From Candidatus Latescibacterota bacterium (GTDB lineage: Bacteria; Latescibacterota; UBA2968; UBA8231), in NCBI GenBank assembly GCA_965261395.1, contig OZ253462.1:2304001-2368000 (forward strand): a stretch of 64,000 nucleotides of DNA, written 5' to 3'. How positions within the stretch are numbered: position 1 is the stretch's first letter; the number at the start of each line of letters is the position of its first letter. A program made the translations under genes and the position numbers. Below are positions 31,525 to 38,558 of the stretch, piece by piece. The notes under the pieces were generated by a model. It saw only the letters and a program-made list of their open reading frames with translations. It was not told where the DNA came from and did no database searches.

Positions 31525-32531
31525 GTCAACCACCGCCCCCTGAAGGAGGCGACTTGTCCCTAGCTCACCCGGCCGCCGCAGCGGTAGGCAGGCCGAAACT
31601 ATAGGCTCGTTGACACAGAGCCCTGGCTCGGATATTCCGAGCCGCGTTGATATCGGCATGGGCTTGCTGCCCACACCGACGACAACAAAACCGAGATTGA
31701 GATAAGCGATTGGCCCGCTCGACATGACCACACTCGGCACACCTCTGACTAGTATGCTTGGGATCGACCATCTCGACCGACATGCCAGCGACTTGCGCCT
31801 TGTAGGCGATAAACTGCCTCAGTTGGTCAAAAGCCCATCCCGTCATGCGAGCGCGTTGAGGCTTGCGAAACCGGATGCTATCCCGGATACCCTTGAGGTC
31901 TTCGAGGGCAATACCCCGGATAGTGCCTTTAGCCTGCTCAACGATGCGCTTGGAGAGGACGTGATTGGTATTTCTACGGAAGTTGGCTTCTTTGCGCGCG
32001 CGTCGGTGCAGCTTCTTGCGGATGCGCTTGCGGCGGCGGGCATTTTGGGCTTGGTCGGCCGCCGATTGCAGCTTTTGACGCAGCGTCTGGCACTTTACGC
32101 GCACCCGCTCCACGTCGGCCCCTGAATACTGTTGACCGTCCGAGTCCGTCGCCAGATTCGCCACGCCCAAATCAACGCCAAGGAAGTCGTCCGGCTCACA
32201 CGTCGTCGCGTCGTCGTATTCGACCGTAGCCATCAAGAACCACTTACCATCGCGCCGACGCACCAACTCGGCATACCGCTTGACGTGGCCGAACTGCTCG
32301 GCTTGGTAGCGGCCCATCTTGCAAGGGATGTCCGTGCGGCCAGCCAGAGCCTTGAGGTTAATACACTCAAGCCCTTTGTAGCGGAGCAAGTGGCGATCAT
32401 AGGGCATCGACGACAGCGGGCGAAACGACATAAAAACCAATACAGTCCGTGTGGAAAACTTTGTCAACCCGTAGTAACCAAAGGGAGAATCGGCGTTTCC
32501 TCTGTCGCCTGAAGACGACAGGCTCCACGCC
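31525..32531 (-). mobile_element. Non-autonomous IS200/IS605 (IS1341-like) element; left boundary approximate
   Basis: Left-end hairpin CTGTCGTC-TTCA-GGCGACAG (~32501-32521); right-end hairpin GTCGCCTCC-TTCA-GGGGGCGGT followed by GGTTGAC ending at 31525; no tnpA. Confidence 0.75.
31565..32431 (-). CDS. tnpB: TnpB RNA-guided nuclease, N-terminally short (288 aa)
   Basis: RuvC motifs GVDLG, ALEDL and HADINAARNI; zinc finger TSQRCAECG...CRRCG. Confidence 0.85.
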   Translation of the reverse strand: MSFRPLSSMPYDRHLLRYKGLECINLKALAGRTDIPCKMGRYQAEQFGHVKRYAELVRRRDGKWFLMATVEYDDATTCEPDDFLGVDLGVANLATDSDGQQYSGADVERVRVKCQTLRQKLQSAADQAQNARRRKRIRKKLHRRARKEANFRRNTNHVLSKRIVEQAKGTIRGIALEDLKGIRDSIRFRKPQRARMTGWAFDQLRQFIAYKAQVAGMSVEMVDPKHTSQRCAECGHVERANRLSQSRFCCRRCGQQAHADINAARNIRARALCQRAYSFGLPTAAAAG

Positions 32532-32540
32532 GAAATTTCT

Positions 32541-35096
32541 ATGAAACCTCTACATCGCCTCAATATCATTCCATCCCTGCCCGAGCAGTTGACGCCGCTG
32601 TGGGAGCTGGGGTACAACCTCTGGTGGACTTGGAGCAAGGAGACCATCTGCACCCTCTACCAGATCGACCCGGAAACGTGGATCGAGAGCCAGCGCAATC
32701 CCCTGCGCTTTTGGGCTTCCCTGCGGCCGGACCAGCTCGACGCCCTAATTGCCGACGAGCAACTGCGGGGTCGCATCGAGCGCATCGTCGAGCAATTCGA
32801 GGGCTATTTGTCGCATACGGCGTGGTTTGGTCAGACGCACGGCGAGAGCCAGTTACAGGTTGCGTACTTCTCGGCGGAATTCGGCTTGACCGAGAGCCTA
32901 CGCATTTATTCCGGCGGCTTGGGCGTGCTCGCCGGCGACCACCTCAAGGCCGCTAGCGACCTAGGCATTCCCCTCGTCGGGGTCGGCTTGCTCTACCGCG
33001 AGGGTTATTTCCGCCAAGCCCTCAACGCCGACGGCTGGCAGGCAGAGCGAAACCCGGAAAACGACTTCTACCAGATGCCCGTACAGCCGGTCTACACTCG
33101 CGACGGAGGGCACCTGACCATTGAGGTCCCCTTTGCCCACGGCTTGGTACAGGCGCGGATTTGGCGGGTGCAGGTGGGCCGGGTGCAGCTCTATTTGCTC
33201 GATACCAACCTCGACGAAAATACCCCTGCGGACCGCGATATTACCGCCCGCCTCTACGGCGGCGACGCAGCCATGCGCATCCGGCAGGAGATTCTCCTCG
33301 GCATCGGCGGTCTGCGTGCTCTCCAGGCCGTGGGCGTCGAACCTACCGTCTGCCACATGAACGAGGGGCACTCGGCCTTTTTGGCCCTAGAGCGGATTCG
33401 TCGGCTAATGGCCGAGCACGGCTATTCGTTTGCCACAGCCCGCGAGGCCAGCGTCATGGGCAATGTGTTCACTACACACACCCCGGTCGCGGCTGGCAAC
33501 GACTGGTTCCCCGCGCACCTAGTCGAGGCGCACTTGGGCTATTTCCGCGAGTGGCTCGGCCTGTCGCACGAGGAATTTATCGGCTTGGGCCGGGTTAATC
33601 CCCGCGACCCCCACGCCGACTTCTGCATGACGGTCTTGGCGCTCAGGCTTTCGGGCCGGGCCAATGGGGTCAGTCGCCTGCACGGCGCGGTTAGCCGCCG
33701 CATGTGGCAGGGCCTGTGGCCCGACTTCTCAGAGCACGAAATCCCCATCGGCCACGTCACCAACGGCGTTCATCTCCACACGTGGATTTCGCTGGAAATG
33801 GCCGAGCTGTTCGACCGCAAGCTCGGCGACGCCTGGCGCTTTGTCTCGACTGACGAGCGGGACTGGGACCCGGTCTATCACATCCCCGACCGCGAGCTGT
33901 GGGACACGCACCAGCACCGGCGCAAGCGGCTGATTGACGTAACCCGCCATCACCTGCGCCAGCAGATGCAGGGCCAAGGCGCGCCGGCGGCCAAAATTGA
34001 ACAGGCGCTAGCGCGGCTCGACCCCGAGGTGCTGACCATTGGCTTTGCCCGCCGCTTTGCCACCTACAAGCGCGGCAACCTGATTTTCCGCAATATCGAG
34101 CGGCTCAAGGCCCTGTTCTCCGACTCGCAGCGGCCCTTGCAGATTCTCTTCGCCGGCAAGGCCCACCCCCACGACGACGCTGGCAAGGAGCTGATCCGCC
34201 AGATCGTCCACCTCGCGCGACAAGCGCCCTTTAATGGCCGGATTTTCTTTTTGCAAGACTACGACATGAACCTCGCCCGCTACTTGGTGCAAGGGTGCGA
34301 TGTCTGGCTCAACAACCCTCGCCGCCCCTTGGAGGCGTCGGGCACGTCTGGCATGAAGGCTGCGGTCAACGGCGTGCTCAACGTCAGCGTATTCGATGGC
34401 TGGTGGGACGAAGCCTGCGACAACCACGCTGGTTGGACCATTGGCCGCGGCGAGGACTACGACGACGAACAGTACCAAGACGCGGTCGAGTCCAACTCGC
34501 TTTACGACCTGCTAGAAACCGAGGTGATCCCGCTCTTCTACCAGCGCGATGCGGACGGATTGCCCGGCGGTTGGGTTGCCCGTATGAAGGAGACCATCGC
34601 CCAGCTTGCGCCGCAGTACAACACGAACCGCATGGTGCGCGAGTACGTCGAGCGGTTCTATTTGCCTGGGCAAGCTCGCTTTGAGGAATTGGCGGCCGAC
34701 CGCGAGCGGGTCCAGCGGCTGACGCATTGGAAGTCGCACGTGCGCTCCAAGTGGGCCCAGGTCCAGATCGGCGCGGTGGATGCCGAATTTCCGCGGCTGC
34801 TCAAGGTGGGGATGCGGGTGCCGTTGCGCGCCGCAGTGGCCTTGGGCGAGCTAACGCCAGAGGATGTCCGCGTCGAGATCTACGCCGGCCGTCTCAATGC
34901 CCAGCGCGAGTTCTCGCAGACCGAGGTGTATCCGCTGGAATTGGCCGGTCCCAACGGCGACGGCACCTATCATTTCGTCGGCACCTTCACGTGCGCGGCG
35001 GCCGGCTCGTACGGCTACACCCTGCGCGTGGTGCCCTCGCACTCTGACTTGCAAAACTCCTTGGAGATGGGGTTGGTTCACTGGGCGAAGGGGTAA
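32541..35096 (+). CDS. glgP: Alpha-glucan (glycogen) phosphorylase
   Basis: YSGGLGVLAGD, HMNEGH, ARRFATYKR, EASGTSGMK. Confidence 0.95.
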   Translation: MKPLHRLNIIPSLPEQLTPLWELGYNLWWTWSKETICTLYQIDPETWIESQRNPLRFWASLRPDQLDALIADEQLRGRIERIVEQFEGYLSHTAWFGQTHGESQLQVAYFSAEFGLTESLRIYSGGLGVLAGDHLKAASDLGIPLVGVGLLYREGYFRQALNADGWQAERNPENDFYQMPVQPVYTRDGGHLTIEVPFAHGLVQARIWRVQVGRVQLYLLDTNLDENTPADRDITARLYGGDAAMRIRQEILLGIGGLRALQAVGVEPTVCHMNEGHSAFLALERIRRLMAEHGYSFATAREASVMGNVFTTHTPVAAGNDWFPAHLVEAHLGYFREWLGLSHEEFIGLGRVNPRDPHADFCMTVLALRLSGRANGVSRLHGAVSRRMWQGLWPDFSEHEIPIGHVTNGVHLHTWISLEMAELFDRKLGDAWRFVSTDERDWDPVYHIPDRELWDTHQHRRKRLIDVTRHHLRQQMQGQGAPAAKIEQALARLDPEVLTIGFARRFATYKRGNLIFRNIERLKALFSDSQRPLQILFAGKAHPHDDAGKELIRQIVHLARQAPFNGRIFFLQDYDMNLARYLVQGCDVWLNNPRRPLEASGTSGMKAAVNGVLNVSVFDGWWDEACDNHAGWTIGRGEDYDDEQYQDAVESNSLYDLLETEVIPLFYQRDADGLPGGWVARMKETIAQLAPQYNTNRMVREYVERFYLPGQARFEELAADRERVQRLTHWKSHVRSKWAQVQIGAVDAEFPRLLKVGMRVPLRAAVALGELTPEDVRVEIYAGRLNAQREFSQTEVYPLELAGPNGDGTYHFVGTFTCAAAGSYGYTLRVVPSHSDLQNSLEMGLVHWAKG

Positions 35097-35266
35097 GGGA
35101 TGTGCGCTGTAGGTATAGACGCGCTTCAAGTTCGTCTTCGGGGATTGGTGGCTTCGCTATTTGTGGGAGTACCCAGCGAAGGCACCCCGTAGCAAAAAAT
35201 AAAGCCCCTGCCTCCAGCTTTTGCGGCATAGAGCGAGATTTTAAACTGAAACTGAGCCATGACCCT

Positions 35267-35611
35267 TTAAGGGTGTTGACTCGTCGTCAGTGAATCGGCG
35301 AGGGTGGTTACGATGGATTTCTCGTCCCGTTTCGATAGCGTACCGATTTTGCGTATCACCGATTTATTATCGAGCGTGAAAAGCTTTAGGCGGATTTTGC
35401 AAGGCACATTGAGGCCGGCTTCCTGCCAATTCTCAATGACTACATCGCTTGGCCATTTGTTTTTCGTGCTCGTAATCATGGCGAGGATCGTTTGCGTGTG
35501 GGCCTTATTGAAGCTCACTGAAGAGACGACTAGCGCCGGGCGGCGTTTCTTTTCATTGAGGTCTGCGAAGGGAAAGGGAACGACGACGACATCGAATGGA
35601 TCAAAGGTCAC
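35267..35611 (-). CDS. PemK/MazF family toxin
   Basis: DVVVVPFPFAD, KRRPALVVS, AMITS; GTG start after GAGGAGG overlapping the upstream stop. Confidence 0.88.
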   Translation of the reverse strand: MTFDPFDVVVVPFPFADLNEKKRRPALVVSSVSFNKAHTQTILAMITSTKNKWPSDVVIENWQEAGLNVPCKIRLKLFTLDNKSVIRKIGTLSKRDEKSIVTTLADSLTTSQHP

Positions 35612-36593
35612 GCCAAGCCTCCTCATCTTCTGGAGAAGTCCATTCTTCGCTCATCGTCTGATAAAGACCTCGCAGGTAATCTTCCTGAACTAGCGGCCAG
35701 CCACCGTAGGCTTCTATTGTTTCGTCAATGCTAGCCATGATGCGCGGCGTCTCGGCCAAGGCCGCACAGAGGCGACGGTAGTGGGCAATGCCGTCGTATG
35801 AGAGGGTGTGTTTTTTGCGGTCCTTGAGCCACTTCTCCGCCGGCTGGTAGCCACCAATAGTGAATTCCCACGTGTTTGGCTCAACGCCATCAAAATACTG
35901 CTCGCTGTTGATCCACACCCGCTTCTGCGGCGGCGCATAGCTCACCTTTTCTACGCGATTGTTGCCATCGACTGGAAAAACGGGGGCCTCGCCATCATCG
36001 GCTTCCATTAAGTGCAGGACTGTCAGTCGCTTCCCAAGCGCGGCGAGCGACTCAAACAGCGCACCGCAGTTGGTCACGGGAACGCGGGGAAAATCTGACT
36101 TGAGGAAGTCAGCGTAGCGGCGGCGGTATTCTGGGCTGTGGAGCACTGCGTAGAGGTAGTGGAAGACATCATCCGGGCCAAAGGTGGTGGTGAGATTGCC
36201 AGCACCGTCGGGGATGAAATCGAGGCTGACGGCTGATGCGAACTTCTTGATGAACCGGGAATCTAGGTTTGGAGCACGCGGGCTGGTGCCATCCGCTAGG
36301 GTCTCCGGCGGATAGATATACAGAGGGAACAGGTAGTTGACTTCTTTTAGAGATACTGTGTGGTGTTGAATGAGGTCCTTGGACGCGAAGACATGCTCCC
36401 AGCCCTTTGCGATTTCGGTCGATCTCGTAGTTGATAGCCCCAGATTCTCCCCGGCCAGTACATGCCGCATAACGTCATATACAGGCCATCCCAAAAACCC
36501 CTTTGACTTATCCGTGTAGTATGTCCACCTATAGTCAAAGGGCCTATATAGACAAAGCTTTATATATTCATCTTTGATTCGGCTTTGGTGCAT
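35601..36593 (-). pseudogene. C-terminal target-recognition part of a type ISP restriction-modification enzyme, fused to an antitoxin-like tail; 5' end removed by IS5
   Basis: YRPFD, FPLY, YAVLHSPEYRRRY...LKSDFPRVP, IGGYQPAEKWLKDRK, GGWPL, then DYLRGL...EWTSPEDEEAWRDL. Confidence 0.82.
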
Positions 36594-37765
36594 GAATTGG
36601 TGTTTTTTTCGGTTGATCGGTTGAATAAAAACAGGCTCCTCAGTAGATTGAGCACGACTTTCGCCAAAAAACCCATGCTTTCTCGTCCAAGGAACCTGTC
36701 ATGGCCAACCTATCGTCTTGCCCCTCTTCCGTCAAGCCTGGTCGCTCGCCTCGCCGTCGCTCCAACGTCGTGTACCGGGTACGTAATTGGGCCGACTATG
36801 AGGCCGGGCTGCAACAGCGCGGTAGTCTGACGGTGTGGTTCACGCCCCAGGCCGTCGAAGCTTGGTATTATCAAGGGCCGCCTCAGCGGGGGGCGCAATA
36901 TACCTTTTCGGAGGTCGCCATCCAAACGGCGTTGACGCTGCGTCTTTTGTATCACTTGCCCCTACGCCAAACCGAGGGGTTTGTCGCTTCGGTGTTGGCC
37001 CTGATGGGCTTGGATCTGCGGGTGCCCGATCACACGACCCTGTCGCGCCGTCAGGCGGGTTTAGCCGTGGCGTGGCCGCCCCAGCGGGGAGACCAACCGA
37101 TGCACTTGGTGGTGGATTCGACCGGGCTGAAAGTGTATGGCGAAGGCGAATGGAAGGTGCGTCAGCACGGCTGGAGCAAGCGGCGCACGTGGCGCAAATT
37201 GCACCTCGGGGTTAATGAAGCCACCGGCGAGATCGTCGCGCAGACCTTGACGACGAATAGCCACGATGATGCGGGGCAGGTGGAGCCGTTGCTGGCACAG
37301 ATCGAGGCCCCCGTGGAGGCGTTGGGCGGCGATGGGGCCTATGACAAACGCAAGGTGTTCAAGGCGTTGGCCGCGCCCGAGCAGGGGGCACCTATTCATC
37401 CGATCATTCCGCCGCGCAAGGACGCCAAAATCGAGCAACATGGCAACACCAACGCCGAGCCGTTGCCCCGCGATGAGACGATTCGAGCCATCCGCAAACG
37501 GGGCCGTCGAGGTTGGAAACACGAGAGCGGCTATCATCGACGCTCGGTAGCCGAAACGCAGATAGGCCGCTACAAACAGATACTTGGTGACACCTTGCGC
37601 ACCCGAACCCTAACCAACCAACAGACCGAAGCGCGGTTGGGCTGTGCCTTGCTCAACCGGATGCGGGCGTTGGCGAAACCTGAGTCCTATCCGCTAACCA
37701 AAAAAGCGTAAATCACACGCGAAAGAAGCCAACACGGCCCCGACCGGTTTTCATGCAACAAAGCC
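36581..37765 (+). mobile_element. IS5 family element (IS903-like)
   Basis: 16-bp IRs GGCTTTGGTGCATGAA / GGCTTTGTTGCATGAA (15 of 16 match); no target-site duplication. Confidence 0.9.
36701..37711 (+). CDS. IS5 family transposase
   Basis: YRVRNW..Y, DSTGLKVYGEGEW, WRKLHLG, GDGAYD, GYHRRSVAE. Confidence 0.93.
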   Translation: MANLSSCPSSVKPGRSPRRRSNVVYRVRNWADYEAGLQQRGSLTVWFTPQAVEAWYYQGPPQRGAQYTFSEVAIQTALTLRLLYHLPLRQTEGFVASVLALMGLDLRVPDHTTLSRRQAGLAVAWPPQRGDQPMHLVVDSTGLKVYGEGEWKVRQHGWSKRRTWRKLHLGVNEATGEIVAQTLTTNSHDDAGQVEPLLAQIEAPVEALGGDGAYDKRKVFKALAAPEQGAPIHPIIPPRKDAKIEQHGNTNAEPLPRDETIRAIRKRGRRGWKHESGYHRRSVAETQIGRYKQILGDTLRTRTLTNQQTEARLGCALLNRMRALAKPESYPLTKKA

Positions 37766-37766
37766 G

Positions 37767-38558
37767 TCCCCAGGCAAAAAAGGTGTTGCCATTCCGAAGC
37801 CCATCCAAAAGGGTATCGAATTCCGCGACGTATCGTTTTGCTATCCAGGGTCTAATGAGTACGTGCTGCGCAATATCTCCTACCATCTTCCCACCGGGCA
37901 TACGACGGCTATCGTCGGCCCTAATGGAGCTGGAAAGACGACACTAGTTAAGCTATTGATTCGACTATATGATCCAACCGAGGGGGCGATTTTAGTGGAT
38001 GGAATAGACCTGCGCGAGGTTGAACCCGAGTCGTGGTGGCGTCATATGAGTGTTATCTTCCAAGACTTCCAACGCTACAATCTATCGGCACGGGAAAACA
38101 TCGGCTTTGGCGAATTGGAGCACTTGCATGACGACGATAAACTCATGCAAGCAGCACGCCTTGCTGGAGCTGAGACGCTGATACAACAGTTCCCGAGAGG
38201 ACTTGACACCATGTTTGGTCGCATGTTCTCCGACGGGATCGAAATTTCCGGCGGGGAGTGGCAGCGCATTGCCCTTGGCAGAGCGTTTATTCGGGACGCA
38301 CAAGTAATTGTATTGGACGAGCCGACAGCATCGCTCGATGCTTTCACTGAGCAGGCAATATACGAAGGATTCGCGCGAGCGATTGTCGGCAAAACGGGGT
38401 TGCTGATCTCGCACCGATTTTCCACTGTTCGCATGGCGGACAGTATTCTCGTCCTGAAGGATGGGCAACTCGTTGAATATGGAACGCACGAGCACCTCAT
38501 TTCAACAAACGGCCTCTATGCCGAGATGTTCACAGCTCAAGCAAGTCAATACAGGTAG
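37767..38558 (+). pseudogene. ABC exporter nucleotide-binding domain; membrane domain lost at the IS5 junction
   Basis: IEFRDVSF, GPNGAGKT, ISGGEWQR, LDEPT, ISHR; the frame is open back to the IS end. Confidence 0.85.

Follow-up and report, generated by a model that had tools for sequence, protein, structure and literature searches.

Toxin–antitoxin (TA) pairs and restriction–modification (RM) systems are two classic addictive modules, usually held to be analogous but separate. The locus described here, found in a window of 64,000 nucleotides (the whole stretch of DNA analysed; positions 2,304,001 to 2,368,000 of contig OZ253462.1) from a Candidatus Latescibacterota bacterium, joins them physically: the 3' end of a restriction enzyme gene continues in frame into an antitoxin-like tail and overlaps the gene of a MazF/PemK-type toxin, so that a defence enzyme stands where the DNA-binding domain of the antitoxin was. 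In the available text of PMC3879964, antitoxins are presented as modular proteins, with DNA binding at the N-terminus and neutralisation at the C-terminus, and the toxin plus the antitoxin's C-terminal residues is treated as one evolutionary module. The neutralising element may be short; in the accessible part of PMC10440598 it is inactive alone and neutralises Doc once fused to SUMO. For MazF itself, a peptide blocking the E. coli protein in vivo has been reported (PMC12557383), and PDB entries 7du4 and 7du5 contain, by their titles, MazF with bound antitoxin fragments.

The first-pass annotation of this DNA had described a restriction enzyme that does not end at GGWPL but runs on in frame for 29 residues, a toxin GTG with an 11-nt overlap with its stop, and the absence of a separate gene for an antitoxin. 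All three observations are borne out by the sequence. The open reading frame (ORF) of 330 residues at 35601-36593 (minus strand) has the C-terminus ...EAYGGWPL-VQEDYLRGLYQTMSEEWTSPEDEEAWRDL-TGA, and the toxin GTG (35611-35609) overlaps the stop of this ORF by 11 nt. No antitoxin gene accompanies the toxin, the nearest match to the MazE/AbrB domain (PF04014, with 11 matches genome-wide) being located 62 kb away. The locus is best explained as what remains of a gene fusion specific to this lineage. The enzyme, or an in-frame remnant bearing the tail, is probably the antitoxin of the coupled toxin, and the toxin would make the 3' end and the reading frame of the enzyme gene addictive. That the tail neutralises the toxin we infer from its homology and from the way in which these genes decay.

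Sequence comparison identifies the tail as the toxin-binding C-terminus of a MazE/AbrB antitoxin, fused in frame to a Type IIG enzyme, which substantiates the likeness to an antitoxin C-terminal peptide that had been pointed out in the first-pass annotation. The same genome encodes, 3.3 Mb off, a standalone pair whose antitoxin of 74 residues (L009; MazE_antitoxin PF04014, 1.6e-10) ends ...GRDDYLQGLSEVMSEWASPEDEEAWRDL. Residues 48-74 of this antitoxin and residues 303-330 of the window ORF are identical at 20 of 28 positions (E 2e-11, BLASTP), and its toxin, with a GTG start and the same overlap, is 62% identical to the window toxin. Among the best 80 of 566 confirmed toxin relatives, taken from species-representative genomes, a standalone antitoxin with PF04014 and the tail precedes 75 (80 residues upstream tested), four are fusions, all of the same genus and none with a PF04014 match, and one (L119) has neither, being preceded by a 47-residue frame without that domain. 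Long open frames upstream of some toxin relatives are high-GC artefacts, with the AbrB domain still inside. The tail consensus of the 75 standalone antitoxins is DxYLxGLxxTLSEWxSPEDEEAWRDL, and in most standalone relatives the antitoxin and toxin genes overlap as in the window.

In the alignment the fusion point falls directly after the AbrB domain (standalone ...RKVTPG/QDDYL, fusion ...GGWPLV/QEDYL). The neutralising segment is retained whole and the DNA-binding domain is wholly absent; PF04014 has no match in the 330-residue ORF or in the full-length relative P0001 (Pfam). With this domain lost, the pair probably no longer represses itself and is expressed as the enzyme gene is. A search with the 34-residue tail against 1.84 billion representatives gave four matches, namely three fragments of the same enzyme and a 31-residue tail-only ORF, and at this sensitivity detected no other protein family with the tail. 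The converse search, for longer proteins with the tail of the standalone antitoxin (three candidates scored), gave two matches, both ordinary antitoxins with over-long gene calls; it says little, because the known fusions were not recovered by it.

The 31-residue ORF (P0127), which is barely more than the tail, and the 47-residue frame at L119:3459-3599, which lacks AbrB, are possible tail-only antitoxins; either may instead reflect gene decay or a gene call that was truncated. Covariation of the penultimate tryptophan of the tail with toxin positions 55, 38 and 62 (82 pairs, relatedness uncorrected) has not been used as evidence.

The window toxin matches PemK_toxin (3e-16, Pfam). Against solved structures its sequence gives weak MazF matches only (E 0.17-0.7), and its identity as MazF has been settled by the fold search. 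The AlphaFold2 model based on an alignment of 83 relatives has a predicted local distance difference test score (pLDDT) of 92.5; a model from a 10-sequence alignment (pLDDT 48.5) was discarded. Foldseek places the MazF proteins of S. aureus, B. subtilis and M. tuberculosis on top, with a TM-score of 0.75-0.78 and a probability of 1.0. Residues R24 and T47 are invariant across the 83 aligned relatives, fused-clade toxins included, and presumably correspond to R25 and T48 of B. subtilis MazF, the catalytic Arg/Thr pair also present in E. coli MazF. Judged from this fold and the invariant pair, the toxin looks active.

It had been considered beforehand that the fusion might be unique to this locus, as a chance deletion would be; this is not the case. 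Through analysis of 31 genomes of the genus with P0001 as the query, the enzyme lineage with the tail or a tail remnant has been identified in 10, in three states: (i) an intact enzyme of about 1090 residues with tail and toxin, in G001, G044, G022, G042 and G046; (ii) an intact enzyme with the toxin gene deleted, in G007 and G006; (iii) an enzyme cut down, with tail and toxin intact, in G012, G021 and the window genome, G000. The first state, found in five genomes, is the full-length tailed enzyme followed by an intact MazF/PemK-type toxin for which a search had been proposed. The AGGAGG preceding the toxin GTG is the same in all 10 loci. Outside the genus, matches in class-level relatives reach no further than about residue 290-305 of 330, hence these relatives have no tail. 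Among the protein clusters homologous to the C-terminal 329 residues of the enzyme (the best 120 of 6924 hits), a near-invariant tail is present in 24, and one more represents the G006 form ending GGWPLV. The remaining 95 have no tail, most of them ending GGWP[LI] plus 0-10 residues, and the 29 residues are for this reason regarded as a real extension.

The enzyme had been assigned to Type ISP, and this assignment does not hold. Type ISP enzymes of the LlaGI/LlaBIII kind possess a helicase-like ATPase motor and an Mrr-type nuclease in a chain of about 1570 residues. The intact relative P0001, encoded by genome G001, has 1088 residues and matches the PADLOC model REase_MTase_IIG (PDLC03610) at 5.3e-273. 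It contains the Pfam domains N6_Mtase, Eco57I and Type_ISP_C, an NPPY motif and an N-terminal ...APDF...ECKD (the PD...ECK nuclease motif), and no helicase domain was detected by Pfam. Given this length and the missing helicase, "Type ISP" is simply the Pfam name of the C-terminal domain, and the intact relatives, all of about 1090 residues, are Type IIG enzymes. The window ORF alone, with just Type_ISP_C positions 71-340, does not qualify as Type IIG; the intact relatives do, as does the pre-insertion allele rebuilt from its two halves.

Further features of this enzyme family have been noted. By eye the enzyme is a mosaic, the last ~190 residues being near-identical between species and the preceding ~140 strongly diverged (window 36100-36580 compared with L026); this looks like an exchange of specificity regions, the diverged part lying in the putative recognition domain. 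Another unusual C-terminal fusion is seen in P0056, a Type IIG enzyme of 1315 residues with a C-terminal Peptidase_S24 (LexA-like) domain (6.1e-07). The window genome also carries an untailed Type IIG paralogue (L002/L051, G000:C1:2793663-2798750), 42-43% identical and present in two reading-frame pieces (ORFs of 475 and 338 residues, with matches to open frames of 749 and 370 residues), which suggests a frameshift. It is followed by a small ORF pair, possibly a TA module (no family search was made).

The window ORF had been taken for a whole RM enzyme and proves to be a part of one: it holds the last 297 residues and the tail, and the first 773 residues are encoded on the opposite strand some 175 kb off, where a copy of the insertion sequence (IS) that borders the ORF in the window comes after them (Table 1). 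The remnant matches Type_ISP_C at 8.5e-75 (profile positions 71-340 of 342, Pfam) and is 74% identical to residues 771-1088 of P0001. The 13 bases of the ORF start (36581-36593) flank all 12 of the IS copies examined. The ends of the IS are GGCTTTGGTGCATGAA and TTCATGCAACAAAGCC, 9-bp target duplications border other copies, and the 6.55-Mb genome contains 20 copies at 100% identity, a further 7 at 81-82% and 3 at 70%. The IS flanks read ctttgattc and gtccccagg at the window copy, and gtccccagg and ctttgattc at the distant one; this swap indicates that the IS inserted into both the enzyme gene and an ABC exporter gene, and that recombination between the copies inverted about 175 kb. At least this one inversion can thus be ascribed to the IS. 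The exporter gene has been split by the same events, and its 5' part lies beside the distant IS copy. A contig of run X16 follows the window without mismatch over 36447-36580 and then continues into the sequence flanking the distant IS copy, and a contig of run X6 follows the window without mismatch over 36114-36580 and continues for 275 further bases. As these public contigs show an uninterrupted allele, the insertion is recent and strain-specific. The ATG inside the IS end can start the 330-residue ORF in frame, and the toxin gene downstream is intact.

Table 1. Features of the tail–toxin junction and of the interrupted enzyme gene (coordinates in the window)
Feature	Position	Strand	Remarks
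MazF/PemK-type toxin gene	35267..35611	minus	114 codons from GTG 35611; stop 35269-35267
Alternative toxin start, ATG	35626	minus	from the ORF listing
Toxin ribosome-binding site AGGAGG	35618..35623	minus	within tail codons D-E-E-A, 6 nt ahead of GTG
Tail VQEDYLRGLYQTMSEEWTSPEDEEAWRDL, antitoxin-derived by homology	35601..35690	minus	29 codons and stop; tail 35604-35690, TGA stop 35601-35603
3' remnant of Type IIG RM gene	35691..36580	minus	ORF residues 5-301; Type_ISP_C, with the first ~70 positions missing
ATG and first four codons (MHQS) of the 330-residue ORF	36581..36593	minus	from the IS terminal inverted repeat
IS5-family insertion sequence	36581..37765	plus	1185 bp; transposase 36701-37711; DDE_Tnp_1_5, DDE_Tnp_1 (Pfam)
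9-bp flank ctttgattc	36572..36580		twin at the other IS copy, beside the enzyme N-terminal part, ~175 kb off
ABC exporter gene, 3' part (ATPase domain)	37766..38558	plus	ABC_tran 4.9e-31; right IS flank gtccccagg 37766-37774

A second fusion, of a VapB-type tail, has been identified through analysis of 77 metagenome loci of related enzymes. In L136 (2501-6207; L137 is identical in sequence) a Type IIG enzyme of 1101 residues extends 42 residues past GGWP, and a 137-residue PIN/VapC ORF (PF01850, 9e-09; NCBIfam VapC, 4.6e-12, below the cut-off) begins at an ATG that its stop overlaps by 10 nt, with no antitoxin ORF between the enzyme and VapC genes. The closest plasmid relatives of this VapC (five records, 57-58% identity; three Mycobacterium plasmids) are, in the two inspected, preceded by a 64-residue ORF ending ...ALDVLAAVPSEDRAEAWR or ...ALDALAAAPSDDRAEAWR. 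The last 24 residues of the L136 enzyme are identical to the last 24 of the 64-residue plasmid antitoxin at 13 positions (E 2e-05, BLASTP). The same kind of tail is carried by P0060 (source label Acidimicrobiales). Among short proteins searched for the VapB-type extension, three candidates were scored and the sole match was a fragment of the same enzyme. The Type IIG family has thus taken up the neutralising tails of two unrelated antitoxins independently, each together with its own toxin.

Downstream of L136 lies a further antitoxin/toxin-like pair, Phd/YefM-like and RelE/ParE-like by eye (no family search was made). The Type IIG enzyme of L143, which ends ...LLDAWRRHVKS, was not counted as a case, there being no toxin-like ORF downstream.

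In the proposed mechanism, the disordered acidic tail with its tryptophan would, like the tails of MazE, occupy the groove in which the toxin dimer binds RNA, and the tailed enzyme or a tailed in-frame remnant would thereby act as an antitoxin. If translation failed to reach the 3' end while toxin was being made, the cell would be arrested or die, and the toxin would in this way create an addiction to the enzyme gene, or at the least to its 3' end and reading frame. The decay series observed in the genus (intact enzyme, then in-frame deletion or IS split with a donated start, then loss of the toxin, followed by that of the tail) fits a translation of the 3' end that is enforced by the toxin. 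The tail is in frame in all eight toxin-bearing genomes, and its changes are conservative (E/D, G/D, M/L, and the last residues, which double as the toxin start). In all three broken enzymes with an intact toxin the breakage preserves the frame. G012 and G021 share one in-frame deletion, which joins the native ribosome-binding site, the ATG and eight codons to residue 677 and leaves a form of 418 residues, and the remnant of G000 takes its in-frame ATG from the end of the IS. Such preservation is suggestive, not proof, as the chance of remaining in frame is about one in three per deletion. The toxin has been deleted in two genomes, with different junctions and in different clades, and in both the tail has changed: G006, sister to the toxin-bearing G046 (support 100/99), has a stop exactly at the junction together with four nonsynonymous and no synonymous changes, and G007 has two nonsynonymous changes.

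The same architecture would also permit a defensive role, in which the toxin is latent on the enzyme as an abortive-infection backup and is freed when a phage inhibits, sequesters or degrades that enzyme; a phage escaping restriction would then set off RNA cleavage and growth arrest. This account, proposed in the first-pass annotation, in which the toxin would be tethered to a defence enzyme, seems unlikely, although it has a precedent in PrrC-EcoprrI, a latent RNase activated by a phage inhibitor of the restriction enzyme (PMC1484252, available text). It also agrees with the occurrence of the same kind of fusion twice with different toxins, with the further TA-like pair beside the locus in relatives, and with the position in a lower-GC island: toxin and enzyme remnant (window 35000-36800) have a G+C content of 0.50-0.57 compared with 0.62-0.66 in the adjacent phosphorylase gene, which fits a horizontally acquired island. 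However, nothing ties the contact of tail and toxin to the state of the enzyme, and the tail persists on remnants without nuclease or methylase (G012, G021, G000). These remnants are moreover under purifying selection, the ratio of nonsynonymous to synonymous differences (pN/pS) between the G012 and G021 remnants (381 codons) being 0.15, with 45 synonymous and 22 nonsynonymous differences, and plain neutralisation by the tail is a simpler account of this than sensing.

It is quite improbable that the locus is an inert relic, in which a chance deletion joined neighbours, toxin activity is weak or absent through silence of the gene, and the tail no longer serves any function. The single origin of the MazE-type fusion in one genus, the decay of several loci and the presence of the tail without a toxin in G007 would agree with such a relic, but the pattern of selection does not. 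Over the 28 pairs of the eight toxin-bearing genomes, which are not independent pairs, pN/pS is 0.14 for tail codons 1-21 (clear of the toxin signals), 0.22 for the last 60 codons of the enzyme and 0.25 for the toxin; tail and toxin are thus both subject to purifying selection. The putative catalytic residues of the toxin are invariant, after loss of the toxin the tail gains a stop, and its other changes are all nonsynonymous (G006), the three broken loci with an intact toxin keep the frame, and an independent VapB/VapC version exists. Least probable of all is a regulatory role, with the toxin dimer tuning or bridging enzyme molecules or with Type_ISP_C replacing the lost AbrB DNA binding: the constraint on the truncated Type_ISP_C body (381 codons, pN/pS 0.15) suggests a role beyond that of a spacer, but the need for a folded carrier, as in the SUMO fusion (PMC10440598, accessible part), explains the same constraint, and no evidence of operator sites or dimer bridging has been found.

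Several points weigh against the tailed enzyme as the antitoxin, the reading preferred here. Canonical MazE acts as a dimer with two tails, and binding may differ when a large enzyme contributes one tail alone. The MazE-type fusion has one origin, within one genus; the ten loci are thus not independent, and their spread may largely reflect inheritance. The paralogous standalone antitoxin of the same genome, with a tail 71% identical, might cover the toxin in trans. The RNA support consists of contigs from metatranscriptome libraries of two studies, one in X15 (35333-35760) and one in X16 (35503-35828), which span the tail–toxin junction and are weakly consistent with co-transcription; DNA carry-over is possible in such data, and contigs do not imply a single transcript. 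No sigma-70-like promoter was found at 35000-37000 (0 compared with 1.1 expected) in a scan confined to this promoter type, a result that is uninformative for this phylum. G007 has an open tail and no toxin, so a tail can outlast its partner for a while. Finally, G012 and G021 share the deletion junction, yet they are not grouped in the tree of the 3' 675 nt, which may be due to recombination or to an unresolved tree (four of the seven inner branches are open).

As regards the surroundings of the locus, in relatives a lipoprotein gene and a TA-like pair of two genes lie between the phosphorylase and toxin genes (L022:4297-6216); the pair is HigB/HigA-like by eye (no family search was made). 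In the window only 170 nt (35097-35266) separate these two genes, about 2 kb fewer than in the relatives. A TnpB-like ORF (31565-32653, minus strand; OrfB_IS605 and Cas12f1-like_TNB) is located between the sugar-metabolism genes and the glucan phosphorylase gene.

The arrangement bears on how single-chain restriction enzymes are maintained. Nuclease and methylase of a Type IIG enzyme are in one chain, and such an enzyme therefore has no means of securing its own maintenance through a nuclease that outlasts the methylase. Tentatively, the capture of antitoxin tails may be a recurrent strategy of these enzymes. If so, a Type IIG enzyme would gain, by serving as the antitoxin, a device for addiction and for policing its reading frame, and possibly an abortive-infection backup. 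Capture has occurred at least twice with unrelated toxins, with MazF in Latescibacterota and with VapC in a high-GC metagenome lineage, the closest plasmid relatives of this VapC being actinobacterial, and might extend to other C-terminal extensions in the family. That a VapB/VapC version arose independently suggests that such fusions follow a general logic and are no accident. Should the toxin also fire when a phage disables the enzyme, the system would be a covalently wired counterpart of PrrC-EcoprrI. No description of an RM enzyme fused to an antitoxin tail was found in full-text literature searches, including the available parts of PMC2701414 and PMC10440598; subscription journals and supplements lay outside this search.

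In comparison with known systems, the locus shares with MazEF/PemIK (Kis-Kid) and their AbrB/SpoVT-type antitoxins the MazF-fold toxin, the acidic tryptophan-bearing C-terminal antitoxin segment, the antitoxin frame upstream, the 11-nt overlap and the toxin ribosome-binding site within antitoxin codons. In contrast to these systems, the AbrB domain for DNA binding and dimerisation is absent, the segment of 28-29 residues ends an RM enzyme of about 1090 residues, and autoregulation by the antitoxin has presumably been lost. PrrC-EcoprrI likewise ties an RNA-cutting toxin to an RM enzyme at the same locus (PMC1484252, available text). However, PrrC is a separate ABC-ATPase/anticodon nuclease held non-covalently by the multi-subunit Type Ic enzyme EcoprrI and activated by a T4 peptide, whereas here a MazF-fold toxin of 114 residues, with no ABC-ATPase/anticodon-nuclease character, is coupled to an antitoxin peptide that a single-chain Type IIG enzyme has captured by fusion. 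The Panacea/PanA antitoxins and the SUMO-Phd-C construct also combine a short C-terminal neutraliser with an exchangeable N-terminal part (PMC10440598 and PMC3879964, as far as accessible); the difference lies in the carrier, which is here a complete, apparently functional defence enzyme and not a small accessory or DNA-binding domain. The parts and the principle of the exchangeable carrier are therefore already known, and what is new is the RM enzyme as the carrier, found twice independently. The intact relatives share with Type IIG (MmeI-like) enzymes the single chain, the N6_Mtase, Eco57I and Type_ISP_C domains and the NPPY and PD...ECK motifs; the antitoxin tail and the toxin gene coupled to it are additions of this lineage.

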